This document shows, piece after piece, positions 46,065 to 61,867 of a DNA stretch of 64,000 nucleotides. The notes below the pieces were generated by a model that searched no databases, was not told the origin of the DNA, and saw only the letters and a list, made by a program, of their open reading frames with translations. The DNA is from an uncultured Actinomycetes bacterium. Lineage in GTDB: Bacteria > Chloroflexota > Dormibacteria > Aeolococcales > Aeolococcaceae. The stretch covers positions 653-64,652 of the forward strand of contig CAZCJX010000004.1 of NCBI GenBank assembly GCA_964499205.1, written 5' to 3'. Each line of letters begins with the position of its first letter. The stretch's first letter is position 1. Position numbers and translations under genes: made by a program.

Positions 46065-46277
46065 CTAGGACATGTCCACCCAGGGCGACTGCTCGCCACC
46101 CTCGGTGCTCTCGTCCTCGGAGCGCTGGCGGTAGCGCTCGGCCACCATCTTGTAGGCGACGTTCTTGGGCAGCCCGAGCTTGACCAGGGACTTGACCTCG
46201 TCGGCCATCACCTTGTCACGCGCCGTCTCGATGGCGGCGATGACGTCGTCGATGTGGACCGGGGCACGCTTTGCCAT
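46065..46277 (-). CDS. Small hypothetical protein (70 aa).
   Basis: MAKRAPVHIDDVIAAIETARDKVMADEVKSLVKLGLPKNVAYKMVAERY..., with good GC3. No domain assignment. The upstream ORF portion was discarded. Confidence 0.4.
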   Translation of the reverse strand: MAKRAPVHIDDVIAAIETARDKVMADEVKSLVKLGLPKNVAYKMVAERYRQRSEDESTEGGEQSPWVDMS

Positions 46278-46369
46278 ACGGTCGTGCAGTCTACCACCGC
46301 CCTGTCGAACCCAATCCTGAGCCGCGGGCACGCGGCGCCAGGTCGGTCCTCCCGCATACTTGGAGCTCG

Positions 46370-47731
46370 ATGGCCTACCTTCCCAACACGGACGCCGACC
46401 GGCGTTCGATGCTCGATGCCGTGGGGGCCAGCCGCATCGAGGACCTCTTCTCCTCCGTCCCCGCACAGCTCCTCGACCCGCGCCTCGACCTCCCCCCGGC
46501 CCTCTCCGAACAGGAGCTGGTTGCCGACCTGGAGCGGCTCGCCGCCCGCAACCGTCCGCTGAGCGCCTGGGAGTCGTTCCTCGGCGCGGGCGTGTATCGC
46601 CGCTTCATCCCGGCCATCGTCAAGGGCACGATCTCCCGCCCCGAGTTCTACACCGCGTACACGCCGTACCAGGCGGAGGCGTCGCAGGGGACACTGCAGA
46701 CGATCTTCGAGTTCCAGTCGATGATCTGCGCGCTGACCGGCATGGACGTGGCCAACGCCTCGCTCTACGATGGCGCCACCGCGGCGGCCGAGGCGTTGAT
46801 GCTGGCGGTGACACATACCGGGCGCAAGCGCGTCGCGGTGAGCGCCGCGGTGCATCCCGAAGCGCTACGCGTCATCGAGACGTATGCGCAGGGGCGCGGG
46901 GTCGCCGTCGACGTCGTCGCGCACCGCGACGGCGTCACCTCGCTCGACGACGTGCGCGCCACGCTGAACGAGCAGCACGCCGGGCTCATCGTCGCCCAGC
47001 CGTCGTTCTTCGGTTGCCTCGAAGAGCTGGCGCCGCTGGCCGACGCCGCGCATGCGGTGGGCGCGCTGGCCATCGCGTCCGTCGATCCCATCGCCTGTAC
47101 GGTGCTGGTGCCGCCCGGTGAGGCGGGCTTCGACGTCGCCGTCGGCGAGGGGCAGCCGCTAGGCATTCCCGCGTCGTACGGCGGCCCGCACGTGGGCTTC
47201 ATGGCCACGCGCGACGCGCTGGTGCGGCGCCTGCCGGGACGGCTGGTCGGCATGAGCGTCGACCATCGCGGACGGCGTGCGTACACGCTGACGTTGCAGG
47301 CGCGCGAGCAGCACATCCGCCGCGAGAAAGCGACCAGCAACATCTGCACCAACCACGCGCTGATGGCGCTGGCGGCGACGATCTACATGGCCCAGATGGG
47401 CGCGGGCGGGATGCGCGCCGTCGCCGAGGTGAGCGCGCAGCGCGCCCACGTGCTGGCGCAGCGGCTGGCCGCCCTGCCGGGATTCTCGGTGGCGTTCGAC
47501 CGGCCGTTCCTCTGGGAGTTCACCCTGCGCGTGCCCGGTGAGGCGGCGCTGCTCGCCGAGCACATGCGCGAGAGCGGCATCATCGCGGGGCTGCCGCTGG
47601 GCGGCGGCGACCCGTCGCTGCACGACGCGCTGCTGGTGTGCTGTACCGAGATGACGCCGCCAGCGGCGATCGACCACTACGTCGACACCGCGCGGCGATT
47701 CGCCGAGCTGCCCCAGGAGGTGCGGGCATGA
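46370..47731 (+). CDS. gcvPA: Glycine dehydrogenase (decarboxylating) subunit 1.
   Basis: ATG with GGAG Shine-Dalgarno. YTPYQAEASQGTLQ and other P-protein N-terminal-half blocks. Confidence 0.95.
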   Translation: MAYLPNTDADRRSMLDAVGASRIEDLFSSVPAQLLDPRLDLPPALSEQELVADLERLAARNRPLSAWESFLGAGVYRRFIPAIVKGTISRPEFYTAYTPYQAEASQGTLQTIFEFQSMICALTGMDVANASLYDGATAAAEALMLAVTHTGRKRVAVSAAVHPEALRVIETYAQGRGVAVDVVAHRDGVTSLDDVRATLNEQHAGLIVAQPSFFGCLEELAPLADAAHAVGALAIASVDPIACTVLVPPGEAGFDVAVGEGQPLGIPASYGGPHVGFMATRDALVRRLPGRLVGMSVDHRGRRAYTLTLQAREQHIRREKATSNICTNHALMALAATIYMAQMGAGGMRAVAEVSAQRAHVLAQRLAALPGFSVAFDRPFLWEFTLRVPGEAALLAEHMRESGIIAGLPLGGGDPSLHDALLVCCTEMTPPAAIDHYVDTARRFAELPQEVRA

Positions 47732-49326
47732 GCACCGGCGACTGCCAGCCGACCACCCCGCCCGAGGACGGCGCGACGGTGGACGCCGCTGTTCCAGCCG
47801 TGAATGGCCAGAAGTCGGCGGTGCAGCCCGGAGCCGGCGGCACCGTCGCCGCCCGCACGGTGGAGGCCGCCTGGGCCGGCGACGAGCCGCTGGTCTTCGA
47901 GCTGAGCAGCGACTACGACGGCGGCCCGCGCACCGTCGCCGCCGGCGTCGAGGCGCCACCGCTGGCCGAGCTGCTGCCGGCGTCGGCGCTGCGCACCTCG
48001 GCGCCCACCGTTCCCGCGGTGCCCGAAGCGGTGCTGGCGCGCCACGTCGGTCGCCTGGCCCGGCGCAACCATCACCTGCACCACGGCATCTACCCGCTCG
48101 GCTCCTGCACGATGAAGTACAACCCGGTGGTCGACGAGCAGCTCGCCTCGCTCGACGGCTTCGCCTCGCTGCATCCCTACCAGGACGACAGCGACGCCCA
48201 GGGCGCCCTGGAGGTGATGTGGGAGCTGGAGCGCATGCTCTGCACCGTCACCGGCATGGCCCGCATGTCGCTGCAACCCGCCGCCGGCGCGCACGGCGAG
48301 TGGACCGGGCTGCGCATGATCCAGGCCTACCACGCCGCGCACGGCGACACCCACCGCACCCGCGTGCTGGTTCCCGACAGCGCGCACGGCACCAACCCCG
48401 CCTCCGCGGCGCTGACCGGCATGGAGGTGGTGACGGTCAAGTCCAACCACGACGGCACCGTCGACGTCGAGGACTTCAAGGCCCACCTCGACTCCAGCGT
48501 TGCGGCCATCATGCTGACCAACCCCAACACGCTCGGCGTGTTCGAGAAGGACATCCTGGAGATCGCGCGCGCCGCGCACCAGGCGGGCGCGCTGCTCTAC
48601 TACGACGGCGCCAACCTCAACGCGCTGGTCGGGGTGGCGCGGCCCGGCGACATGGGCTTCGACGTCGTCCACCTCAACCTGCACAAGACGTTCTCGACCC
48701 CGCACGGCGGCGGCGGCCCGGGCAGCGGACCGGTGGGCGTGGCGGAGTCGCTGGTCGACTTCCTGCCCGTGCCGACCGTGGAGAAGCGCGACGGCGGGTT
48801 CGTCCTCGACCACGACCGTCCCCGGTCGATCGGCAAAGTGCGTTCCTACTACGGCAACTTCGGCATGCTGGTGCGCGCCTACGCGTACATCCGGGCCTAC
48901 GGCGACACCCTGCCCCAGGTGGCGCGCGACGCCGTGCTCAACGCGCGCTATCTCCAGGCGCGCCTGGCGCCGCTGTTCCCCATGGCGGTGGACACGCCGT
49001 GCCTGCACGAGTTCGTCGCCTCGACCCAGGGCGGGCGCGTCGCCGGGCTGCGCGCCGTGGACGTGGCCAAGCGGATGATCGACTACGGCGTCTACCCGCC
49101 GACGGTGTACTTCCCCACTACGGTGCACGAGGCGCTGATGTTCGAGCCAACCGAGACCGAATCCAAGCAGAGCCTGGACCAGCTGGCCGACATCTGCGCG
49201 GCGATCGTCAACGAGGCGGAGCGCGACCTCGCCTTCGTGCAGGCGGCGCCGCACAATGCGCCGGTGGAGCGCGTCGACGAGGTGCAGGCGGCGCGCCGGC
49301 CGGTGCTGCGCTGGAAGCTCCAGTGA
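47728..49326 (+). CDS. gcvPB: Glycine dehydrogenase (decarboxylating) subunit 2.
   Basis: ATGA overlap with gcvPA. PLP region NLHKTFSTPHGGGGPG. It has an unusual ~50-aa low-complexity N-terminal extension before the conserved EPLVFELS. Confidence 0.95.
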   Translation: MSTGDCQPTTPPEDGATVDAAVPAVNGQKSAVQPGAGGTVAARTVEAAWAGDEPLVFELSSDYDGGPRTVAAGVEAPPLAELLPASALRTSAPTVPAVPEAVLARHVGRLARRNHHLHHGIYPLGSCTMKYNPVVDEQLASLDGFASLHPYQDDSDAQGALEVMWELERMLCTVTGMARMSLQPAAGAHGEWTGLRMIQAYHAAHGDTHRTRVLVPDSAHGTNPASAALTGMEVVTVKSNHDGTVDVEDFKAHLDSSVAAIMLTNPNTLGVFEKDILEIARAAHQAGALLYYDGANLNALVGVARPGDMGFDVVHLNLHKTFSTPHGGGGPGSGPVGVAESLVDFLPVPTVEKRDGGFVLDHDRPRSIGKVRSYYGNFGMLVRAYAYIRAYGDTLPQVARDAVLNARYLQARLAPLFPMAVDTPCLHEFVASTQGGRVAGLRAVDVAKRMIDYGVYPPTVYFPTTVHEALMFEPTETESKQSLDQLADICAAIVNEAERDLAFVQAAPHNAPVERVDEVQAARRPVLRWKLQ

Positions 49327-50509: not shown

Positions 50510-53500
50510 TCAGCTGCTCAGCGAGCACGTCGCGGAGGTGTATCCACTACCGGTCGCGGTGACCGTGGCCGACTTGTTGGCGGCAGTCGCTGTCACGCTG
50601 AACGAACCGGTCGGCGAGCCGGTCGACTGCAGCGAGGCGCTCGTCGGTCCCGGGGTCGTGTTGAGGTTGAAGTGGGAGGCGTCCGTGCCGGTCAGATTGA
50701 TGGTGAACGGGAAGCCGGGGCTCTGGTAGGTCGCCGGGTTGCCGTACGTGTCGTTGGCGATGGTCACCGTCGACGTCCACGTGTGTCCGTTGCTCAGGGC
50801 GCCGGGGCAGGCGGTGGTGAACGAGAGGCTGCTCGCCGCAGAGTTGATGAACACGGTGCCCGAGCCGGTGTGCGACGGCGACTGCGTGTCGGTCGCGGTC
50901 AGGGTCTGCGTGCCGGCGTGGTACAGGGTCGCCTGCAGTGTCGTGGTGGCGACACCGCTGCTGAAGCTGACCGTGCCCGCCGGCAACGTCGGCGCGTGGC
51001 CGCTGGGGCTGTTCGCCGGGCCGCTCCAGTTGATCGTCTGGTTGCTGGCGGTGTAGGTGGTGACGGTGTTGCCGTACTGGTCCTGCGCGGTCAGCGTCAC
51101 GCTGAACGCCGATCCCGCGTTCTGCGGCCCCGCCATGCTGACGCCGTACTTGGAGAGAGCGCCAGCGGTGTTGGTCATGGCATAGGTGACCGAGGTCAGG
51201 CCGGTCGCCGAGGCGGTCACGTTGTAGCTGCCCGTCGTGGTGTTGGCGGTGAAGGTGGAGGACGTCGCCCGACCGTTGCTGCCGGTGGTTGCCGTGGTCG
51301 TCGCGGTGCCGTTGGCGAAGGTGCCGGAGGCGCCCGACGACGGAGCCGTGAAGGTCACGGTCACACCCGACACGGGGTTGCCGTAGGTGTCCGACACGGA
51401 TGCCACCAGGGGGTTGGCGAAGGCGGTGCTGACGGCCGCCGACTGCGGTGAGCCGGAGAACGCGGCCAGGGTGGTCGCCGTCCCCGCGTTGTTGGTCAGG
51501 GAGAAGGTGACCGTGTTGGTCCCCGTGGCGCTCGCCGACACCGTGTAGCTGCCCGACGTCGTGTTGGCGGTGAACGTCGAGGACGTGGCACGACCGTTGC
51601 TGGCGGTGCTCGCCGTCGTGGTCGCGGTGCTGGTGTTGGCGAAGGTCCCGGACGCTCCCGACGCGGGCGCGGTGAAGGTCACCGTCGCACCCGAGACGGC
51701 GTTGCCGTAGGTGTCGACCACGGAGGCGACGAGCGGGTTGGTGAAGGCCGTCGCCACTGTGGCCGACTGCCCGGAGCCGGAGACCACGGCGATCGTCTTC
51801 GCCGCGGCTGCGGTGTTGGTCATCGAGAAGGTGACGGTGTTGGTTCCCGACGCGCTCGCCGACACGGTGTAGCTGCCGGCGGCCGTGTTGGCGGTGAACG
51901 TCGAGGACGTGGCCCGGCCGTTGCTGCCGGTGCTCGCCGTCGTCGTCGCCGTGCTGTTGGCGAAGGTGCCGGATGCGCCCGACGCGGGCGCGGTGAAGGT
52001 CACCGTCACACCGGACACGGGGTTGCCGTACGTGTCGGACACCGACGCCACCAGGGCGCTGCCGAAGGCGGTGTTGACGGTCGTCGACTGCGGAGAACCG
52101 GAGAACACGGCGATGGTCGACGCCGATCCGGAGGTGTTGGTCAGGGAGAAGGTGACCGTGTTGGTGCCCGCGGCGTTCGCCGACACCGTGTAGGTGCCCG
52201 CGGTGGTGTTGGCGGTGAACGTCGAGGAGGTGGCCTGGCCGCTCGCGTTGGTGGTCGCGGTCGTGGTCGCCGTGCTGTTGGCGAAGGTGCCGGACGCGCC
52301 GGACGCGGGCGCGGTGAAGGTCACCGTCGCGCCCGATACCGGGTTGCCGTAGGTGTCGACCACCGAGGCGACCAGCGGATTGCCGAAGGCCGAGGCGACC
52401 GCGGTCGACTGGTTCGACCCGGAGACGACGGCGAGCGTCTTCGCCGCGCCTGCCGTGTTAGTCAGGGAGAAGGTGACGGTGTTTGTGCCCGCGGCGCTCG
52501 CTGACACCGTGTACGCCCCCGCGGTCGTGTTGGCGGTGAACGCCGACGACGTGGCCTGACCGCTGGCGTTACTGCTCGCCGTCGTGGTCGCACTGCTGTT
52601 GGCGAAGGTCCCCGATGCACCCGACGCGGGCGCGGTGAAAGTGACGGTCACACCCGACACCGGGTTGCCGTACGCGTCCACCACCGACGCCACCAGGGGA
52701 TTGGTGAACGCGGTATTGACGGTTGCCGACTGACCCGAACCCGACACCACCGCCGCAGTCTGGGCTGCCGCCGCGTTGACGGTGAAGGTCACCGACCCGG
52801 TCACGCCGGTCGCGGCGGAGTCGGTCGCGGTCAGGGCGTTGCTGCCCGCGGCGTAGGCGGTGAAGGTCGAGGAGGGCGACGCGACGCCGTTGCTGAAGGT
52901 CACGGCGCTCGAGGGGTACGAGGGCGCATGGCCGGAGGGGCTGTTGGCCAGGCCCGACCACGTCAGCGTCTTCGCGCCGGTGTAGGTGGTGTCGGTGGAG
53001 CCGTTCACCTTGGCGGTGATGGTGTTGACGGTGATCGCGGTGCCGGCGGTGTACGGCGAGGCCGAGAGCGCGATGGTGAACGACGGCGTCGAGGTCGTCG
53101 CCGAGGTGGTGATGGCGCTGCTCTGCCAGTTGGAGAGAACGGCCATGACCGAATAGGCATAGGTGGTACCGGCGGTCAGGCCGGTGTCCTGGCAGGAGGT
53201 CACGGTCGAGGCCACCGTGCAGACGGTGGTGGCGGTGCCGGGGCTGGTCCGCGTCACCTTGTACTGCGCGCCGGTGAGCTGGGTTGTCGGAAGCGTCCAG
53301 CCAACGGTGATCGCGCCGCTGCCGTTGACGGTTGCGGTGGGCGTGGTCGGCGCGGACAGGCTGGCGGCGACGGCCTGCGCCTGGTTGCCGCCCGGGTTGA
53401 GGACAGTGATGGTCCAGAAGGCGAGACCGGCGACCGCGCCGGCCACCAGCAGTCCACCGGCGACGAGAAGTGCGCGACGCAGCAGCGCAGCGCGGAGCCA

Positions 53501-53530
53501 GATGGTGCGGACAGCGACCTGTGCGCTCAC
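50510..53530 (-). CDS. Large cell-surface protein (1005 aa) with N-terminal signal anchor and six or more tandem bacterial Ig-like repeats; putative adhesin or fibre-associated protein.
   Basis: GTG start overlapping the upstream gene stop (GTGA). N-terminal TM LLRRALLVAGGLLVAGAVAGLAFW. The repeats read ...VVSGSGQSATV..FTNPLVASVVDTYGNPVSGATVTFTAPASGASGTFAN...YTVSASA.GTNTVTFSLTN. Confidence 0.85.
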   Translation of the reverse strand: MSAQVAVRTIWLRAALLRRALLVAGGLLVAGAVAGLAFWTITVLNPGGNQAQAVAASLSAPTTPTATVNGSGAITVGWTLPTTQLTGAQYKVTRTSPGTATTVCTVASTVTSCQDTGLTAGTTYAYSVMAVLSNWQSSAITTSATTSTPSFTIALSASPYTAGTAITVNTITAKVNGSTDTTYTGAKTLTWSGLANSPSGHAPSYPSSAVTFSNGVASPSSTFTAYAAGSNALTATDSAATGVTGSVTFTVNAAAAQTAAVVSGSGQSATVNTAFTNPLVASVVDAYGNPVSGVTVTFTAPASGASGTFANSSATTTASSNASGQATSSAFTANTTAGAYTVSASAAGTNTVTFSLTNTAGAAKTLAVVSGSNQSTAVASAFGNPLVASVVDTYGNPVSGATVTFTAPASGASGTFANSTATTTATTNASGQATSSTFTANTTAGTYTVSANAAGTNTVTFSLTNTSGSASTIAVFSGSPQSTTVNTAFGSALVASVSDTYGNPVSGVTVTFTAPASGASGTFANSTATTTASTGSNGRATSSTFTANTAAGSYTVSASASGTNTVTFSMTNTAAAAKTIAVVSGSGQSATVATAFTNPLVASVVDTYGNAVSGATVTFTAPASGASGTFANTSTATTTASTASNGRATSSTFTANTTSGSYTVSASATGTNTVTFSLTNNAGTATTLAAFSGSPQSAAVSTAFANPLVASVSDTYGNPVSGVTVTFTAPSSGASGTFANGTATTTATTGSNGRATSSTFTANTTTGSYNVTASATGLTSVTYAMTNTAGALSKYGVSMAGPQNAGSAFSVTLTAQDQYGNTVTTYTASNQTINWSGPANSPSGHAPTLPAGTVSFSSGVATTTLQATLYHAGTQTLTATDTQSPSHTGSGTVFINSAASSLSFTTACPGALSNGHTWTSTVTIANDTYGNPATYQSPGFPFTINLTGTDASHFNLNTTPGPTSASLQSTGSPTGSFSVTATAANKSATVTATGSGYTSATCSLSS
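50980..52770 (-). repeat. Six near-identical ~291-294-bp coding tandem repeats (Ig-like domains) inside the 50510-53530 gene.
   Basis: Protein repeats of ~97 aa with more than 80% identity. The nucleotide blocks (e.g. gtgaaggtcaccgtc...ggttgccgtaggtgtc) recur with this period. Confidence 0.8.
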
Positions 53531-54015
53531 TTGTGCACCGTCAGGGTGACCGGGATGGAGAACGTCGCGCCCTGGCAGCCGCTGGAGGACGTGGTGCCCA
53601 TCGACGCAGCGCCGGGCAGGTGCACCAGCGACGAGCCGTTCGGCACGGTGATGCTGAGTCCGCTCTGGTTGGTGAAGGTCACACCGGTCGTGGTGCAGCC
53701 GGTGTGGCCGCTGTCAGCGGTGATCGCGCCGTTGCCGCTGACGCTGATCAGCGTCACCGCGTAGGCGTTGGGGTTGCTCAGCCGCAGGATGACGTCAGCG
53801 GTGCCACCCGGCTGCAGCGACGAGGTCGGCGCATCGCCGCCGGCGAACGCAACCACCGTCACGGCCTGCGGGGTTCCCGTTGCGGCCGAACCCGATCCCG
53901 AGCCGCTGGTGCGCCAGTAGGCGAGTGCACCGACGGCGGTGACGGCGAGCGCGGCGACGGCGGCGGCGGCCGCGATGCGGCGGCGCGCTGTCAGCAGCGA
54001 GCGAATGTGCTTCAT
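53527..54015 (-). CDS. Small secreted protein A with TasA/camelysin-type (SipW-cognate class) signal peptide and a conserved C-terminal two-Cys domain.
   Basis: N-terminus MKHIRSLLTARRRIAAAAAVAALAVTAVGALAYWRTSG (K/R-rich, hydrophobic, then a G..AYW/F motif). The C-terminal GCTTTG...SGCQGATFSIPVTL is shared with genes B and C. Its ATG overlaps the gene B stop (ATGA). Confidence 0.7.
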   Translation of the reverse strand: MKHIRSLLTARRRIAAAAAVAALAVTAVGALAYWRTSGSGSGSAATGTPQAVTVVAFAGGDAPTSSLQPGGTADVILRLSNPNAYAVTLISVSGNGAITADSGHTGCTTTGVTFTNQSGLSITVPNGSSLVHLPGAASMGTTSSSGCQGATFSIPVTLTVHK

Positions 54016-55379
54016 CAGTTGGCCTTGGCGGCGGTGCCGCTGAAGGTGAAGGAGAACGCCGCCCCCTTGCAGGCGTCCTGGTTGGTCGAGAGGTCGAGCA
54101 TCTGGATCTGCGGCCACTGCGCGGTGGGCACGCCGAGGCTCTGCAGCGACGCGGTGCCGTTGCCGGGGATCACCACCGTGGCGGTGAGGCCCTGCGACAC
54201 CACCACGTTGGTGGGGCCGTCGCAGCCCGCGTCGGGTTGGCCGCTGATCGTCGTCTGGTGCATCACGGTGATGGTCACCGAGGTCACCCGGATGGCGAAG
54301 TTGTACGGGTTGGTGAAGGTGAGGTTCATCGGCCGGATCGCGCCCGGGTAGAGGGGCTGGGGGACCGTGCCGCTGATCGGGAAGGTCTTCTTGTCGACGA
54401 TGGTCCACGGATACGACGTGGGACCACTGGCGTTGCTCGCCGCGTCCACGGCGCGGACCGCGAAGGTGTGGTCGGCGACGCTGAGTTTGCTGTAGCTCGC
54501 CGGCGAGGTGCACGCGGTGAACGCGGCGCCGTCGAGGCTGCACTGCAGGGTCGCGCCCGACTCGCTGTCGGCGAAGGCGAACGTGGCCGACGTGTCGTTG
54601 GTGGGATTGTCAGGTCCCGAGGAGATGGTCGGCGCCGGCGGCGCCACCGTGTCGACGGTGAATGTCGACGTTGTCGGCGAGCCCGCCGGGGTGGTGTTGC
54701 CCAGCGTGTCGGTGGCGCGCACGTGCACCGTGTATGCGCCGTCGGCAGGGCGGGCCAGCGCGTACTTCCAGCTGGTCGTGCCCGACGCAGCGTTGTACAT
54801 CTCGCTCGCGCTGCCGAAGGCGGATCCGTTCCAGTACATGCCGCTCGACGCCTGCCGGACGGAGACCTGCACCGCGCTGACGCCGGTGGCGTCGCTCGCG
54901 GTTCCGCAGATGCCCGGCGTCGCGCCGCATCCGGTGCTCCACGCGGTGGCGTTCTCAGCGCCGCCGTTGGCGGGGAAGGTCACCGAGGTCGTCGGCGCGG
55001 TGGTGTCGACCGTCCAGGTCGCGGTGGCGGGGCTGCTGGGACCGCTACCCGTCACCTGCGCGGTCACCGCGAAGAGGTGGTTGCCATCCGCCAGGCCCGT
55101 GTAGGTCTTGGGGCTGGCGCACGCGGCGGGCGCTGCACCGTCCAGCGAGCACTGGTAGGTGACGCCGCTCTGCGTGTCGGTGAAGGAGAACGTCGCGCTC
55201 GTCGATGTGGTCGGGCTCGAGGGCCGCGACGTGATCGACGGTGCCGGCGGCGGTGCTACGGATTTGGCGAACGCCGCCTCGTACAGCACGGTGCCTCCGA
55301 CGGCTACGCCCACAGTCGTGATGAAGGCCACGTTGATGGTGGTCTTGGTCACGACTGTCCCCCACGGGGTCCTGGGCAT
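54015..55379 (-). CDS. Secreted protein B (454 aa): TasA-type signal peptide, two Ig-like domains, and a C-terminal two-Cys domain paralogous to A and C.
   Basis: GAGGAG Shine-Dalgarno. N-terminus MPRTPWGTVVTKTTINVAFITTVGVAVGGTVLYEAAF. Two copies of the SATFxFxD..SG.TxQCSLDGAA..AC.SP..Y..L..G.H.F.V.A.D domain. C-terminal NQDACKGAAFSFTF. Confidence 0.75.
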   Translation of the reverse strand: MPRTPWGTVVTKTTINVAFITTVGVAVGGTVLYEAAFAKSVAPPPAPSITSRPSSPTTSTSATFSFTDTQSGVTYQCSLDGAAPAACASPKTYTGLADGNHLFAVTAQVTGSGPSSPATATWTVDTTAPTTSVTFPANGGAENATAWSTGCGATPGICGTASDATGVSAVQVSVRQASSGMYWNGSAFGSASEMYNAASGTTSWKYALARPADGAYTVHVRATDTLGNTTPAGSPTTSTFTVDTVAPPAPTISSGPDNPTNDTSATFAFADSESGATLQCSLDGAAFTACTSPASYSKLSVADHTFAVRAVDAASNASGPTSYPWTIVDKKTFPISGTVPQPLYPGAIRPMNLTFTNPYNFAIRVTSVTITVMHQTTISGQPDAGCDGPTNVVVSQGLTATVVIPGNGTASLQSLGVPTAQWPQIQMLDLSTNQDACKGAAFSFTFSGTAAKAN

Positions 55380-55430
55380 CGAGGTCTCCTCAACCCGCGT
55401 ACGCGGGCACTGCGAATCTGAAATGGAGGC

Positions 55431-55455
55431 GGAGGGGCGCGCGCGGCGCCCCTCC
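55431..55455 (-). terminator. GC-rich hairpin (10-bp stem) 20 nt downstream of the gene C stop; candidate intrinsic terminator or attenuator between gene C and gene B.
   Basis: GGAGGGGCGC-gcgcg-GCGCCCCTCC, a perfect palindrome, followed on the minus-strand mRNA by gccuccaUUUcagaUUcg. A second palindrome CCCGCGTACGCGGG lies at 55394-55407. Confidence 0.4.
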
Positions 55456-55475
55456 ACTCAGCGATGTGCCAGGAC

Positions 55476-55937
55476 CTAGTTGCTGGTCAGGTTCAGCGTG
55501 ATGGTGGCGCCCTTGCACGCGTCCTGGCTGTTCACCATGTCGTTCGCGTACACGAGAGTTCCACTGCCGGTGAGCGCATAGCCGGTCGAGTTGTGCGGCA
55601 CCACGGTGTTCGACGTCACGTCGGCCATCGAGAAGTCACTGACCGCACAGGTGCTGTGCGAGCTGTCGACGCTCACGCTGGCGAGGTGAATGGTCTGGAC
55701 CTCGAGATTGGTCGCGCCGCCGTTGTCGGCGGTGAAGCTGACCGTCTCCGAGCCACCCGGGTAGATACCAGCGGGGAAGCTGGCGTGCAGAACGATGGTG
55801 CCGTTGCTGCTCGCCGCGTTGGCAGAGCCAGTACCGGCACCGGTGGTCGTCCAGTACGCGTAGGCGACGACTCCGCCGATTCCCACCGTGGCGATCGCTG
55901 CCGCGGCAGCGATCTTCTTCCGAGAGATGAAACCCAT
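55476..55937 (-). CDS. Small secreted protein C (153 aa) with TasA/camelysin-type signal peptide; likely the first and most highly expressed gene of the operon.
   Basis: AGGAGCAGGA Shine-Dalgarno. N-terminus MGFISRKKIAAAAAIATVGIGGVVAYAYWTTTG matches the KK...GGxxAYF/W pattern. C-terminal NSQDACKGATITLNL is shared with A and B. Confidence 0.75.
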   Translation of the reverse strand: MGFISRKKIAAAAAIATVGIGGVVAYAYWTTTGAGTGSANAASSNGTIVLHASFPAGIYPGGSETVSFTADNGGATNLEVQTIHLASVSVDSSHSTCAVSDFSMADVTSNTVVPHNSTGYALTGSGTLVYANDMVNSQDACKGATITLNLTSN

Positions 55938-56309: not shown

Positions 56310-56777
56310 ATGCCCTTCTTCCGCCGCACCCCCAAGCCACCCGCGCCGCTCGCGGAGTTCACCGTGGGGCTGCGCGACAACCGCGTGGTGGTGGGCGCGG
56401 CGGAGCCGGGCGTCGCCCAGCTCGATGAGCTGCGCGACTACGTCGGGTCGGTCACCGGGCACGCCGCAGCGTCACCCGGCGGGCGCGATCCCGTGGCGGT
56501 GCTCAACGCCAAGATGGACTTCGCCGAGCTGGTCGACGACACCGCGTCAACCGTGACGCTGGTGTTGGAGGAGCTGGTGCAGCGGGGCATCGTCGATGCC
56601 GGCGCGGTCCCGCGCGAAGCGGAGCTGCCGCCCTTGCCGCAGCAGTCCAGCACCTACGAGTACATCCAGGCCGCGTACGCGCGCGCGCAGGCGCGCATGC
56701 GCTGGTTGGACGAGGCCAACGCGGTGCTGCGCGAGAGCGGCGTTGCCCTGCTGCCGCCGGCGCCGCCTCAGGAGTAG
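56310..56777 (+). CDS. Hypothetical cytoplasmic protein.
   Basis: High-GC3 ORF. Start chosen at Met MPFFRRTPKPP. The 5' part of the track ORF is low-complexity. No recognisable domain. Confidence 0.4.
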   Translation: MPFFRRTPKPPAPLAEFTVGLRDNRVVVGAAEPGVAQLDELRDYVGSVTGHAAASPGGRDPVAVLNAKMDFAELVDDTASTVTLVLEELVQRGIVDAGAVPREAELPPLPQQSSTYEYIQAAYARAQARMRWLDEANAVLRESGVALLPPAPPQE

Positions 56778-57886
56778 AGGCGGGCGCCCGTCCACTCCGA
56801 CGCGATCAGCGGGTGCGGCGAGGCCGACGGCGTCGCCGACGGCGTCGCGGGCGGCGACCCGCTGGCGTAGGGCGAGGCGGCGAACTGGGCGAGCAGCCGG
56901 TTGATCTCCGCCACCGGCATGCCGAAGAGCGCCTTGTGGGCGAAGGACTGCAGCGCGTCCGTGCCGCCGACGCGGTAGCGCGGCCAGGCGTAGGGGTCCG
57001 ACGCGTAGAGCTCGGCGCCGCTGTCGGTGGTCACCGCGTCGCTGAACCCGTCGGCCTGCACCAGCTTCTCGACGGCTGCGTCGTAGCTGCCGTAGGGGTA
57101 GGCGAAGTCGCTGATGTGGTGGCCGACCAGCGCCTCGAGCTGCTGGTGGCTGACCTCGATCTGGGTCTTGGCATAGGAGAGCGGCACGCCGGCCAGGGCA
57201 ACGTGGTTGACCGTGTGCACCCCGACCACCATGCCGGCGGCGTCCACCTGGCGCACCTGGTCGGCGGTCATGTACCCGTTCTTGCCGAGGAAGCCGCTGA
57301 CCACGAAGACCGTGCCCACCAGCCCGTCCTGCACCAGCACCGGCGTCGCCCTGGTGGCGAAGTTCATGTAGCCGTCGTCGAAGGTGAGGATCACCGAGCG
57401 CGGCGGCAGGGCATGGCCGCTGTGCAGTGCAGCCAGCGCGTCGGAGAGGGTCACGGTGTGGGCCCCGACGAAGTGCAGGAAGGCCATCTGCTGGGCGAAG
57501 TGCTGCGGCGTCACCGAGAGGTTGAAGCCGACGGTGTCGCTGGCGACCGGGTTCACCCGGATGTAGTGGTAGAGCAGGATCGGCAGGAGGATGTGCGGCC
57601 CCCGCGGTCCGGTCGCGGCCGGGCCGGCGGCGAGCTGGGTGGACGGTGTCGGCGTCGACGTCGGATCGACGAAGGGGCCGATGTCGTCCTCGGGCGTTCC
57701 CACTGGGCTCGGCCTCGGCGTGGGCGCAGGGCGCAGCACCACGGCGCGCTGCGGCGGACTCACGCGCTGCACCGTCACCGCGGCGGCGGCGGTGGCCACG
57801 ATGAGGAGGGCGAGGGGAATGGCTGCGCGGCGCCAGGTGGACCGGGAGGTGGGACGCCGGCCGCGCCGGAGATCCATGCGCCGCAT
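56768..57886 (-). CDS. Membrane-anchored polysaccharide deacetylase (NodB/CE4), paralogue of 24324-25274.
   Basis: N-terminal signal anchor (AIPLALLIVATAAAAV). ILTFDDGY, HTVNH, and the shared LPILLYHYIR block with the other deacetylase. Only the C-terminal 372 aa of the track ORF are used. Confidence 0.85.
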   Translation of the reverse strand: MRRMDLRRGRRPTSRSTWRRAAIPLALLIVATAAAAVTVQRVSPPQRAVVLRPAPTPRPSPVGTPEDDIGPFVDPTSTPTPSTQLAAGPAATGPRGPHILLPILLYHYIRVNPVASDTVGFNLSVTPQHFAQQMAFLHFVGAHTVTLSDALAALHSGHALPPRSVILTFDDGYMNFATRATPVLVQDGLVGTVFVVSGFLGKNGYMTADQVRQVDAAGMVVGVHTVNHVALAGVPLSYAKTQIEVSHQQLEALVGHHISDFAYPYGSYDAAVEKLVQADGFSDAVTTDSGAELYASDPYAWPRYRVGGTDALQSFAHKALFGMPVAEINRLLAQFAASPYASGSPPATPSATPSASPHPLIASEWTGARLYS

Positions 57887-58000
57887 TCTACGGACTGCCC
57901 GGAGTCCCCGGGCGACATCGGGCAGGATCCGACTGAAAGACCTCGCGGCGCGGCGCGGTCCTCTACCGGTGCAGGCCCACCGGTTTGGAGTTGTTGCCGC

Positions 58001-61000
58001 ATGCGCCGAGCTGCGCGTTTGGTCGCCCTGTTCACCGTCGTCGCCGCCTCGGGCGCGGCCGCTTCCGCCGCCGGAGCCGTGCCCGGCGCGACGCCGTCCC
58101 AGCCGACAGCCACGCCTGGCCGCACCGCCGCCCAAGCCGCGGCTGCTGCCCGCCAGGCCCTCGCCACGCCCACCCCCGCGGCGCTGGCCACCGCGCTGCG
58201 CCAGGCGAGCACCGCGTCGCGCCCGCAGTCCTGCCCCCCCGTCCCCGCCGACCAGGGCGGCCCCGACGGCGAGCCGGTCACCGCGCGCGGCGCCTTTCCC
58301 TGGCCCGCACCGCCCGCCGGCGTCGACCCCACCCAGTACCAGCGCTACGACCACACCCCGCGGCAGCAGCCCCCGCTGCGCCCGGCCAACTGGAGCAACG
58401 GCGGCGCCGACTGGAAGCTGACCAGCGCCCGCACCACCGACCCGACCGTCGCCATGAACCCACAGGAGCTCTGCGGCGTCGAGGGCAACAGCGTCGACCA
58501 GGCCTGGCAGGTGGCCACCGGCCGCCCCACCACCGTCATCGCCGTGCTCGACTCCGGCATCGAGTGGTGCAGCAGCGGAGTTGTAGACAAGATCTACATC
58601 AACCGTAACGCCCTGCCGCTGCCCGAGAACGCCGCCGGCCTGACCAAGCCGCAGCTGGCCGCGCAGGGCGCTCACTTCCTCGACAGCGATGCCTACGACC
58701 TCAACGACGACGGCGTCGTCAACGTCGAGGACTACGCCCACGACCCGCGGGTCACCCAGCATCCCTTCTTCTGCGGCGGCTTCGTTTCGCCCAAGGACCT
58801 GATCACCGCCTTCACCCCGCTAGGCCTGGAGTCGCCGGCCGGCTTCACCGAGGCCATCGCGGGCTGGAACTTCCTCGACAACAGCAACGATCCCTACGAC
58901 GACGTCCACTACGACCACGGCACCGGCGAGGCCCACGACTCCGGTGGCGCCGCCAACTCGACAGACGACGTCGGCGCCTGCCCCAACTGCATGATCCTGC
59001 CGGTGCGCGTCGGCGACAGCTTCATCGCCTTCGGCAACGACTTCGCCCAGGGCGTGCTCTTCGCCGTCGACAGCGGCGCCACGGTGATCCAGGAGGCGCT
59101 GGGCACGCTCGACGTCACCACGACGGCGCGCGAGGCCGTGGACTACGCGCAGGCGCACGGCGTGCCCATCGTGGCCAGCGCCGCCGACGAGGAGGCGGCG
59201 CACCACAACCTGCCCTCGGTGCTTCCGCACACCATCGTGGTCAACAGCACCACGCATTACCTCGACCAGGGCGGCCAGGCGCTGCAGTACCCGCAGAGCT
59301 ACCTGTATCTCAACGGCTGCACCAACTTCGGCGCCAACATCGCCGTCACCGTGGAGAGCTCCAGCTGCTCCTCGGAGGCGACGGGGAAGACCGGCGGCAT
59401 CGTCGGCCTGCTCGAGTCGGCGGCGAGCGACGCGGTGTCGCGGGGAATGCTGCAGCCGTATCCCGGGCTGCGCAACGGTGCCGGTGCCGCCGTGCCGCTG
59501 TCGGCCAACGAGGTGCAGCAGCTGGTCACCATGAACGCCGACGACGTCGACTTCGCCACCGCCGCGCCCCCGTACGGTCCGCCGGACAACTACGCGGTCG
59601 TCTCGCCGGTGCCGACGACCCGCTACCCGACCACGCCGGGCTTCGACATCTACACCGGCTACGGCCGCATCAATGCGGCGAGCATCCTGCAGCGCCTGGC
59701 CTCCGGTGACATCCCGCCGGAGGCGAGCATCGACAGCCCCACCTGGTTCGACACCGTGCCGACAACGGGGACGCTGAAGGTCACCGGCATGGTTGCCGCG
59801 GTGCGCGCGTCGTCGTACACGTACGCGGTGCAGGTGGCCAGGGGCGAGGCCGACTCCGGATGGGTGACGGTGGCCAACGGCAGCGGCAGCAGGCCCTTCC
59901 ACGGCACCCTGGCGTCGATCAGCGGCGCGCAGATCGCCGCGCTGTTCCCGCCCACCACCGACTTCAGCAGCGGCCCCGTTTCGGTGGCGGGACGGCCGGA
60001 CTCGGAGAAGTTCGGCTTCACCGTGCGGGTGGTGGTGACCGACAACGCGGGCCGCACCGGCATGGATCGCCGCACCGACTACCTGCACGACGACTCCACG
60101 CTGCTCGCGGGCTTCCCCAAGCACTTCGGCGGCTCGGTCGACGCCGCGCCCGCGCTGGCGCCGATCGGCCCCAACGGCACCAACGCGCTGCTGGTCACCA
60201 CCGCCGACGGCGACATCCATGCCTACATGCCCGACGGCAGCGAGCTGCCCGGCTGGCCGGTGCACACCGCGACGCTCGACTACCACAGCGGTGAGCCGGC
60301 CTTCCGCCACGGCAGCGGCGTGGCGCCGCCGCACGGCACCATCATCGGCGGCATCGCCGCGGGCGACCTGGCCAGCGCGCACGGCAGCGCTCTCGACGTC
60401 GTCGCCGCCGATGTGACCGGGCGCGTCTACACCTGGGACGCGCACGGCCGCATGCTGCCCGGCTTCCCGGTGCGCACGCTGCCGCAGTACTCCGGCCCGG
60501 CGGTGCGCGACCCGCACAACCGCGTGCTGCGCGGCGTCTTCGCCGCACCGGTTCTGGCCGATCTCGACAGCAACGGCAGCCTCGACGTGGTCGCCGCGGC
60601 GATGGATCGCCATCTCTACGCCTGGCACGCGGACGGCACGCCGGTGAGCGGCTACCCGTTGGAGGTGGTCGACCGCCGCATGGTGCAGTCGATCGACCCG
60701 AACACCGGCAAGGTCACCTACCCGCCGGGATCGCCGGTGATGCAGGGCACCAAGATGATCGACAGCCCGGCGGTGGGCTCGCTCGACGGCAACGGCAAGC
60801 TCTCGCTGGTGGTGGGCACCAACGAGGAATATGCCGGCACGCCCAACGTCAGCACGGCGAGCCCGGGCGCGTACGCGGTGGGGCAGATCCCCATCCTCAA
60901 CGGCGCCAACAGCCGTGTCTATGCCTTCAGCAACACGGGGCAGCTGCGCAGCGGCTGGCCGGTGGCCATCGGCGACTACGAGGGCGGCCTGCTGCCCGAC

Positions 61001-61867
61001 GTCGGCGACGGCACCGGCAACAGTCCCGCCCTGGCCTCGGTGAACGGCGACGGCTCGCTGCAGGTCGGCGTCATCACCACCGTCGGTCCCGGCTACGTGC
61101 TCAACGCCGACGGCAGCTCGTTCTTCGGCAACGGTCCCGACGGCAAGCCGCGCGTGCTCGGCATGGAGGCGCCGGGGCCGCTCTCCAACTCGCCCGACCA
61201 TCCCTCCCTGCCGGCGCTCGGCGCGCCGATCTTCGCGCCGCTCGGCCCGGCCGCGCCGGGGGTCAGCTTCGTCAGCCCCGCCGCCAGCGCCGAGAAGGCG
61301 CTCGACGCCGCACTGCCCGCCGACCAGCATCCCCACGACAACCAGCTCGACGCGTGGAACCTCACCACCGGCGAGTACCAGGCCGCCTTCCCCCAGGTGA
61401 TGGGAGAGCTGCAGTTCTTCGTCCAGCCGCTCGTGGCCAATGTCGGCGGAAACAGCGCAGGGCCGTACGTGGTTGAGGGCTCGGCGCTGGCCGACCTGCG
61501 TGCCATCGACGCCACCGGGCAGGAGGCGCCCGGCTTCCCCAAGTTCACCGGTGGCTGGCTGGTCAACAGCCCGACATTCGGCGCCTGGGGATCGCTGGGC
61601 AAACAGGTGCTGGTGAGCGGCACGCGCGAGGGCATGCTCTTCGCCTGGAGCACGGCCACCGACGCCTGCGCATCGAGCGGGCCGTGGGCGCGCAGCCACC
61701 ACGACCTCTGGAACACCAACAACCTGCAGACCGCTGACGCGCCGCAGTTCCACTGCGCCACGCCAGTGGGCGGTCTGCCGGTGCCGGTGCCGCTGCCGTC
61801 GCTGCCCGTGGCGGGGTTGGGGCCGGGCGCCGCGGTGCTGCCGCAGACGCGCGGACTGCTGCGATGA
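58001..61867 (+). CDS. Large secreted subtilase-like (S8-like) protein with C-terminal FG-GAP/VCBS beta-propeller repeats (1288 aa).
   Basis: GGAG Shine-Dalgarno. Signal peptide MRRAARLVALFTVVAASGAAASAAGA. Asp box VIAVLDSGIE and His box DHGTGEAH. FG-GAP-like repeats (DLDSNGSLDVVAA, SLDGNGKLSLVVG, SVNGDGSLQVGV). I could not place a canonical GTSxAxP serine motif. Confidence 0.75.
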   Translation: MRRAARLVALFTVVAASGAAASAAGAVPGATPSQPTATPGRTAAQAAAAARQALATPTPAALATALRQASTASRPQSCPPVPADQGGPDGEPVTARGAFPWPAPPAGVDPTQYQRYDHTPRQQPPLRPANWSNGGADWKLTSARTTDPTVAMNPQELCGVEGNSVDQAWQVATGRPTTVIAVLDSGIEWCSSGVVDKIYINRNALPLPENAAGLTKPQLAAQGAHFLDSDAYDLNDDGVVNVEDYAHDPRVTQHPFFCGGFVSPKDLITAFTPLGLESPAGFTEAIAGWNFLDNSNDPYDDVHYDHGTGEAHDSGGAANSTDDVGACPNCMILPVRVGDSFIAFGNDFAQGVLFAVDSGATVIQEALGTLDVTTTAREAVDYAQAHGVPIVASAADEEAAHHNLPSVLPHTIVVNSTTHYLDQGGQALQYPQSYLYLNGCTNFGANIAVTVESSSCSSEATGKTGGIVGLLESAASDAVSRGMLQPYPGLRNGAGAAVPLSANEVQQLVTMNADDVDFATAAPPYGPPDNYAVVSPVPTTRYPTTPGFDIYTGYGRINAASILQRLASGDIPPEASIDSPTWFDTVPTTGTLKVTGMVAAVRASSYTYAVQVARGEADSGWVTVANGSGSRPFHGTLASISGAQIAALFPPTTDFSSGPVSVAGRPDSEKFGFTVRVVVTDNAGRTGMDRRTDYLHDDSTLLAGFPKHFGGSVDAAPALAPIGPNGTNALLVTTADGDIHAYMPDGSELPGWPVHTATLDYHSGEPAFRHGSGVAPPHGTIIGGIAAGDLASAHGSALDVVAADVTGRVYTWDAHGRMLPGFPVRTLPQYSGPAVRDPHNRVLRGVFAAPVLADLDSNGSLDVVAAAMDRHLYAWHADGTPVSGYPLEVVDRRMVQSIDPNTGKVTYPPGSPVMQGTKMIDSPAVGSLDGNGKLSLVVGTNEEYAGTPNVSTASPGAYAVGQIPILNGANSRVYAFSNTGQLRSGWPVAIGDYEGGLLPDVGDGTGNSPALASVNGDGSLQVGVITTVGPGYVLNADGSSFFGNGPDGKPRVLGMEAPGPLSNSPDHPSLPALGAPIFAPLGPAAPGVSFVSPAASAEKALDAALPADQHPHDNQLDAWNLTTGEYQAAFPQVMGELQFFVQPLVANVGGNSAGPYVVEGSALADLRAIDATGQEAPGFPKFTGGWLVNSPTFGAWGSLGKQVLVSGTREGMLFAWSTATDACASSGPWARSHHDLWNTNNLQTADAPQFHCATPVGGLPVPVPLPSLPVAGLGPGAAVLPQTRGLLR

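Follow-up and report, generated by a model that had tools for sequence, protein, structure and literature searches.

An unannotated family of secreted Ig-like proteins in Actinomycetota with a predicted donor-strand type of fibre logic

Among Gram-positive bacteria the known types of filament are the sortase-built pili, the type IV/Tad pili and fibres of the TasA type. Where monoderm bacteria and archaea build donor-strand filaments (TasA, AbpA, AbpX and the threads), a signal peptidase frees an N-terminal strand, which completes the fold of the next subunit, and W2 of AbpX has been described as an 'aromatic clamp' in filaments built by donor-strand complementation (DSC) (bioRxiv 10.64898/2026.01.04.697558). 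The major subunit of archaeal threads stands beside a donor-only cap, Saci_0405 (PMC9715654), and TapA is the neighbouring donor-only cap or nucleator for TasA (PMC10151520). It is a generic signal peptidase that processes the subunits of archaeal bundling pili and threads, whose loci encode no peptidase dedicated to them (PMC9245690). Here, a cluster of four minus-strand genes, named C, B, A and D, is described at positions 50510-55937 of a stretch of contig CAZCJX010000004.1 (64,000 nucleotides (nt), ~72% GC; the window, meaning the whole stretch of DNA that was analysed). The cluster encodes an unannotated protein family for which a donor-strand type of fibre logic is predicted. The literature on TIGR signal models, TasA-like proteins and donor-strand pili in Actinomycetota was searched, and no description of the core family common to C, A and B was found in it.

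A shared core, an N-terminal motif and three protein classes

Three of the four proteins have in common a core of ~110 amino acids (aa), a two-Cys immunoglobulin (Ig)-like domain. In the 153-aa product of gene C (55476..55937, on the minus strand as are all features of the cluster given below), the predicted major subunit, the core follows a signal peptide and a conserved N-terminal strand (YWTTTGAGTGSA). Gene B (54015..55379) encodes 454 aa, comprising a plain signal or anchor sequence, a Pro/Ser/Thr linker, two OmpL47-type/Big_13 Ig domains and a C-terminal core (~residues 332-454; 54018..54386) without the N-terminal strand. The 162-aa product of gene A (53527..54015), proposed as a minor or adaptor subunit, combines the N-terminal motif with the core, and the 1006-aa product of gene D (50510..53530) has a signal peptide, the motif and FN3 plus five Big_1-type Ig repeats, and no core. 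The Ig domains of B were identified in Pfam and NCBIfam scans and the fn3 and Big_1-type repeats of D in a Pfam scan. A first-pass annotation of the window had already recognised the two Ig-like domains of B, the giant Ig-repeat nature of D and a common C-terminal domain with two Cys in C, B and A, and all three observations were borne out.

C was aligned with A by BLASTP at E=4e-7, and residues 47-151 of C were aligned with residues 332-447 of B at E=2e-4. Searches with jackhmmer seeded with C, A or the C-terminus of B converged on the same ~175 open reading frames (ORFs) of related loci, and the three are therefore members of one domain family. C141 is invariant in the C family and C97 is at least 90% conserved, and the two conserved Cys fit an extracytoplasmic protein. 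The shared core is not covered by any model of Pfam or NCBIfam; when C, B, A, D and their relatives were scanned, no TasA, SipW-signal or pilin family scored above cut-off, apart from one relative (P0108) that is discussed below, and the Paenarthrobacter orthologues are labelled "hypothetical protein" in RefSeq. A word-indexed search found 292 homologues of C, while an exhaustive profile search against clusters at 50% identity gave 3,973 with E<=1e-3 and 1,528 with E<=1e-10. The C-family profile produced only chance matches to PDB sequences (E>=0.77), with no TasA among them.

AlphaFold2 (AF2) predicted C as a nine-strand beta-sandwich with a mean predicted local distance difference test (pLDDT) score of 81, exceeding 90 in the core, in which the conserved N-terminal segment forms a strand (residues 32-40, pLDDT ~72-76) placed in cis within the sandwich. 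The best Foldseek match had E=0.033, the fold being a generic Ig-like sandwich, and TasA, AbpA and pilins were absent from both lists of matches. In D (residues 1-260 modelled) the FN3 and Ig domains were predicted with pLDDT >92, and the motif region (residues 31-50), at pLDDT 44-54, was not confidently packed on the domains of D itself.

The N-terminal motif is the best-conserved stretch of the C family (...AYA YWTTTGSGTGTA...), since W29, G35 and G37 are invariant; Y28, T30, G33 and A42 are at least 90% conserved. It is placed after a K/R-rich n-region and a hydrophobic h-region of ~19 residues, and is followed by a Gly/Ser-rich strand. The signal peptide of C (residues 1-27; 55857..55937) ends in AYA before the predicted cut by signal peptidase I (SPase I), and the conserved strand at residues 28-42 (YWTTTGAGTGSANAA; 55812..55856) is the proposed donor strand, on the basis of conservation and the AF2 prediction. 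The motif was also found in A (ALA↓YWRTSGSGSGSA, the arrow marking the predicted cut), where residues 33-47 (53875..53919) align with that of C and were picked up by a motif scan as well, and in D (GLA↓FWTITV...; residues 38-58, FWTITVLNPGGNQAQAVAASL, 53357..53419), and it is kept in the D-like proteins of other loci. Over 142 ORFs, position -3 is Ala in 130 and position -1 is Ala in 138, with Tyr or Phe at +1 and Trp at +2. Judged by its sequence, AxA↓[YF]W, the motif has the canonical form of a site for SPase I and is not a SipW-specific signature. A G-x-x-AY(W/F)-type N-terminus had been ascribed to A, B and C in the first-pass annotation, and this holds for C and A but not for B; the 57 B-type proteins of related loci have a plain signal or anchor N-terminus and never [YF]W, and the motif of D had been missed.

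When the core alone (C residues 46-153) was used as the query, 173 ORFs were found in related loci. The motif and the core occur together in 94 of these (C/A types), and in 57 the core is found without the motif, at the C-terminus of a longer Ig-containing protein (B type), while the core is absent from all 51 D-like proteins. The other 22 of the 173 ORFs comprise 11 that bear the motif and have long N-terminal parts, probably because they were called too long, and 11 that are short and lack the motif. On the profile the core starts at ~37-51 in the B types, just past the strand region, as against 1-11 in the C/A types. An A-type subfamily with its own consensus was present in Arthrobacter and other loci.

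Two variations on these N-termini were observed. Some loci from Gaiellaceae and from fen metagenome-assembled genomes (MAGs) (L014 and L015) have three or four tandem C/A-type paralogues, one subtype of which carries AYF or AYAYF instead of AYW, and this suggests subunit diversification within a single cluster. In one Paenarthrobacter B-type protein (L046, 10470-11336) the signal sequence closes with LGAC, which resembles a lipobox, where the orthologues of this protein have LGAS, and B might be lipid-anchored in some strains.

Gene order, the hairpin after gene C and distribution of the cluster

The four genes are real and co-transcribed. The GC content at third codon positions (GC3) is 0.86-0.93 for C, B, A and D (0.86 for C), which is typical of real genes in a window of 72% GC and compares with 0.93 for the bona fide gene gcvPB; their high second-position GC reflects Thr/Ala/Ser/Gly-rich proteins. 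The four ORFs agree in position with those first annotated, and independent gene calls on identical metagenome contigs gave products of 153, 454 and 162 aa and a large fourth gene truncated at the edge of each contig, and put a Polysacc_deac_1 gene and a Peptidase_S8 gene upstream of them. Ribosome-binding sites (AGGAG/GAGGAG) precede C and B, that of C being an AGGAG 8 nt before the ATG. The coupled A/D junction was confirmed as GTGA, in which the GTG start of D overlaps the stop of A, but the junction of B and A, previously given as ATGA, is TGATG, with the start of A on the stop of B and a 1-nt overlap. Long plus-strand ORFs inside D and B (50730-51056, 51873-52193 and 54496-55104) have GC3 of 0.93-0.96; these are antisense-frame artefacts of high-GC coding sequence and could mislead gene callers.

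Folding of the 96-nt spacer between C and B located a hairpin with a perfect 12-bp GC-rich stem (55429..55457), 19 nt past the stop of C, which is a putative attenuator or mRNA-stabilising stem. The hairpin has no clear T-tract and was for this reason missed by a consensus terminator scanner; it was found by direct folding. Hairpins follow the first C-type gene in nearly all related loci (L003-L084), with sequences that differ and stems that are equally strong. Over 70 related loci, the hairpin within the 110 nt downstream of the first C-type gene had a median folding free energy (dG) of -32 kcal/mol, compared with -19.7 kcal/mol for a window of the same size inside the next gene (paired Wilcoxon p=8e-11), and this paired comparison with coding sequence is independent of the shuffle procedure. 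Against composition-preserving shuffles the median z was -5, and in 55 of the 70 loci the native sequence did better than each of 15 shuffled ones; because dinucleotides were not strictly preserved in the shuffling, z is approximate. Together with the overlapping B/A/D junctions, the position of the hairpin suggests that C would be produced in excess over B, A and D, as for a shaft subunit.

The cluster is conserved across the phylum. A genome scan yielded 80 loci, which came from Solirubrobacteraceae/Solirubrobacterales, Gaiellales, Acidimicrobiia, Frankiales/Jatrophihabitans, Pseudonocardiales, Nocardioidaceae and Agrococcus, with many in cultured strains of Arthrobacter, Paenarthrobacter and Pseudarthrobacter. 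The recurrent gene order is C-type, B-type, sometimes A-type, then D-type; among 58 loci with enough flank, judged with a crude ORF filter, a B-type gene was present in 44 and a D-type gene in 47. All-vs-all clustering of ~3,800 flank ORFs from the 10-kb flanks of the 80 loci identified no conserved neighbour besides the family itself, and neither a signal peptidase nor a sortase is conserved near the cluster. The response-regulator and kinase genes found near it are lineage-specific.

In the window, upstream neighbours within 56768-61867 include a secreted polysaccharide deacetylase (Polysacc_deac_1, PF01522, 311 aa) and a 1,288-aa Peptidase_S8 protein, as the first-pass annotation had described; these genes are not kept beside the cluster in other lineages. 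Downstream, two adjacent long plus-strand ORFs at 46271-49326 look by eye like the subunits of a split glycine dehydrogenase (gcvP). No RNA family, the glycine riboswitch included, came up when the window was scanned with Rfam and for tRNAs, and no Pfam family was found in the small flanking proteins of the window, L001 and L003.

Several single loci have features of their own. C-type genes lie on contigs binned as a Thermoplasmata archaeon MAG (L019, 4.3 kb) and a Chloroflexi MAG (L081, 11 kb), both of 72% GC; this GC content resembles that of actinobacterial loci, so these contigs are probably mis-binned rather than evidence of horizontal transfer. A Bifidobacterium breve MAG contig (L069, 58% GC) carries a C-type gene and a 767-aa D-type gene, its GC content looks compatible with Bifidobacterium, and the system may also occur in gut Actinomycetota. 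The single match in a plasmid collection, an unannotated Arthrobacter megaplasmid, was uninformative.

The proposed fibre and the alternatives

These data appear to favour, tentatively and at somewhat under an even chance, a reading in which the four genes specify parts of a secreted, sortase-independent and chaperone-free donor-strand surface fibre, in which C would form the shaft, A would be a minor component and B and D would cap the two ends. All four proteins would be exported, and C, A and D would be cut by ordinary SPase I after AxA, which would expose an N-terminus of [YF]W and a Gly/Ser/Thr-rich strand. The exposed strand would insert into the Ig-like core of a neighbouring subunit by DSC. 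C, with both strand and core, could polymerise into a shaft, and the hairpin after its gene would attenuate read-through so that C is made in excess; A would be a minor strand-plus-core subunit. B, having a core without a strand, would be an acceptor only and would cap one end, while D, having a strand without a core, would be a donor only, capping the other end and probably serving as an adhesin through the ~900 residues of FN3/Ig repeats that it would display. The analysis itself shows the genes, their paralogy, the three classes, the AxA site, the hairpin and the conservation in the phylum; that the chains are cleaved, exchange strands and polymerise, and which end would face the cell, we infer.

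The strongest single argument for the fibre is that D keeps the motif without the core while B keeps the core without the motif. The retention of the motif in D without a core, where AF2 confidence is low, as against a sandwich strand in C, argues for a role in trans. The occurrence of C, B, (A) and D in ~80 loci with no other conserved neighbour was also counted for this reading. The aromatic residue at position 2 of the predicted mature chain agrees with the clamp described for AbpX, and a donor-only cap encoded beside the major subunit has parallels in Saci_0405 and TapA; the conservation of the motif, the two Cys of the core, the hairpins after the C-type gene and the overlapping junctions of B, A and D count in the same direction. 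The first-pass annotation had likewise proposed a fibre or adhesin system with major, accessory and large Ig-repeat parts; the conserved gene set, the hairpin after C and the three classes speak for such a system, but the subunit roles need revision, B being the odd one out without the motif and D sharing it.

A number of points weigh against the fibre. Exchange of strands between subunits is proposed on indirect grounds, from the three classes and from single-chain AF2 models. The proposed donor strand has Gly at alternate positions and is atypical in this respect, unlike the amphipathic hydrophobic strands of known DSC pilins, and within a single chain the N-terminal strand might be no more than a cis A-strand. 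B, too, contains an AxA-like site and could be released. Neither an LPXTG nor another C-terminal anchor was found in any of the four proteins, and there is no evident means of anchoring a fibre. The B and D pair was present together in 36 of the 58 loci with enough flank under the crude ORF filter.

The main rival is a non-polymerising surface complex or coat of Ig-like proteins that are secreted or held in the membrane, in which the shared AxA[YF]W...GSGSA segment would be a processing, sorting or glycosylation signal, or a cis A-strand. This explanation, though on balance unlikely, draws on the generic Ig-like sandwich fold, on the placing of the strand in cis in the AF2 model of C and on the lack of conserved assembly machinery nearby. 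The Thr/Ser/Gly-rich segment resembles regions modified by actinobacterial protein O-mannosyltransferases, which was also counted in its favour, as was the weakly PMT_2-like gene adjoining one related cluster. A non-polymerising complex leaves unexplained both the motif without a core in D and the core without a motif in B, and also the hairpin pointing to an excess of C, and a pure sorting signal would be expected on B too. The PMT_2-like gene encodes a 665-aa protein (L001, 6315-8312; protein mannosyltransferase-like match, E=0.0019) and is a possible link to O-glycosylation of Thr/Ser-rich subunits.

The first-pass annotation had regarded the cluster as encoding divergent TasA/camelysin (Peptidase_M73) fibres, with signal peptides cut by a SipW-type peptidase encoded elsewhere, and this is now highly improbable. 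C matched Peptidase_M73 (PF12389) at E=0.53 and with 10.5 bits against a cut-off of 22.5, in the wrong region, and A and B gave no match to this model. Weak matches were obtained in 7 of 37 relatives, of which only P0108 passes the cut-off (25.2 bits, residues 5-96, including the signal peptide), and most C-family members do not match PF12389. Neither TIGR04088 nor TIGR04089 matched C, B, A, D or nine relatives, including Paenarthrobacter, at E<=1. For profile comparison the TasA sequence was confirmed against PDB 8AUR and 5OF1, and the family was collected and 32 members aligned for hhalign. Full-length profiles of the C family and TasA gave probabilities of 43.7% and 59.5%, aligning the TasA cleavage site A27↓A28 and F29 with A27↓Y28 and W29 of C; mature TasA begins AF.... 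When both signal peptides were removed the probability was 1.7%, over 23 columns around PGx...F.x.N.G, and reversed-sequence controls gave 0.2%. The fall from 59.5% to 1.7% indicates that the resemblance to TasA rests mainly on the signal peptide, and membership of the TasA/camelysin family was rejected.

The predicted structure likewise differs from the TasA-like jelly-roll that had been expected, the core of ~110 aa in a beta-sandwich contrasting with a TasA jelly-roll of ~210 aa, and fold searches found no TasA. No dedicated SipW-type signal peptidase was found in the operon or elsewhere in the window, and none is conserved in the 80 loci. Regular-expression scans of the window in six frames found no SPase I box-B motif, TLxTC sortase motif or LPXTG within real genes, in agreement with the earlier remark that no signal peptidase, sortase or LPXTG was visible there. 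With an ordinary AxA site, dependence on SipW is not supported by the sequence, and the cluster would need no SipW. A preprint reports that TasA homologues from Actinomycetota cluster with Bacillus TasA. A Peptidase_M73 match carried by the signal peptide is not to be taken as a sign of homology to TasA.

Components of a sortase-dependent or type IV-type pilus can be dismissed as next to impossible: a sortase gene lies 2 kb upstream in one related locus and one family member has a weak N_methyl match (0.0015), but the absent sorting signals effectively refute sortase-dependent pili, a sortase being near only 1 of the 80 loci, and for type IV pilins no G↓FxxxE was found, no window protein matched N_methyl and the motif comes after the hydrophobic segment, not before it as in class III (prepilin) signals. 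The sortase gene in question (L003, 7061-7909) is divergent, with two small unannotated ORFs between it and the cluster.

To return to the donor-strand fibre, a broader claim may be made with still less confidence than the fibre itself. The clusters may represent a phylum-wide, unrecognised class of Gram-positive filament, a sortase-independent and chaperone-free donor-strand pilus of Actinomycetota with a ~110-aa two-Cys subunit bearing an AxA↓[YF]W strand and with acceptor-only and donor-only ends, which would have evolved independently of TasA, the threads and the chaperone-usher systems. If the cluster makes a filament, one more type would be added to those of Gram-positive bacteria; the family amounts to ~4,000 clusters at 50% identity, and its range among the Actinomycetota of soil extends from Solirubrobacterales to Arthrobacter. 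Soil aggregation, biofilm formation and the colonisation of roots are processes in which fibres of this kind could play a part. Arthrobacter and Paenarthrobacter are understood to be genetically tractable, and the presence of the cluster in cultivable members of both makes the fibre idea directly testable.

Comparison with described filament systems

The TasA/TapA system of Bacillus subtilis (PF12389; PDB 5OF1, 8AUR) resembles the present cluster in belonging to a monoderm and in having secreted subunits whose N-terminal signal is cleaved and whose second mature residue is aromatic (the cleavage, and with it the mature N-terminus, being predicted here). Its operon is likewise small and combines a major subunit with a larger accessory protein of similar N-terminus. 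N-terminal donor-strand assembly without chaperone or usher, as proposed here, would be a further likeness. However, homology of the mature domains is undetectable by hhalign, the two-Cys Ig-like sandwich is about half as long as the jelly-roll, there is no sipW in or near this cluster and the core-only protein B has no counterpart in the TasA system.

The sortase pili of Actinobacteria (SpaA, FimA) come from the same phylum and are likewise encoded in operons with one major subunit and minor subunits built of Ig-like domains. They differ from this cluster, which has no LPXTG, pilin motif or sortase, and in which any linkage between subunits would be non-covalent.

The chaperone-usher pili (Fim/Pap) offer the same logic of subunit classes, namely a polymerising subunit with an N-terminal extension and an incomplete Ig fold, an acceptor-only adhesin and a terminator. 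The pap and fim operons likewise begin with the gene for the major subunit, and a stem-loop after this gene raises its relative expression. Unlike these systems, the present one has no periplasm, chaperone or usher, and its large adhesin-like protein would be the strand donor and not the acceptor.

The archaeal thread (Saci_0406 with Saci_0405) and AbpA/AbpB belong to another domain of life, with no sequence or fold match among the matches listed, and this cluster gives no evidence for the isopeptide bonds or N-glycosylation of those systems; the cap proposed here, unlike that of the thread, would be a 1,006-aa multi-Ig protein. These systems nevertheless share with it the use of a generic signal peptidase, which is predicted here, subunits that are Ig-like or beta-rich, and a major subunit accompanied by a neighbour which has a donor strand (a proposed one in D) but no acceptor site.

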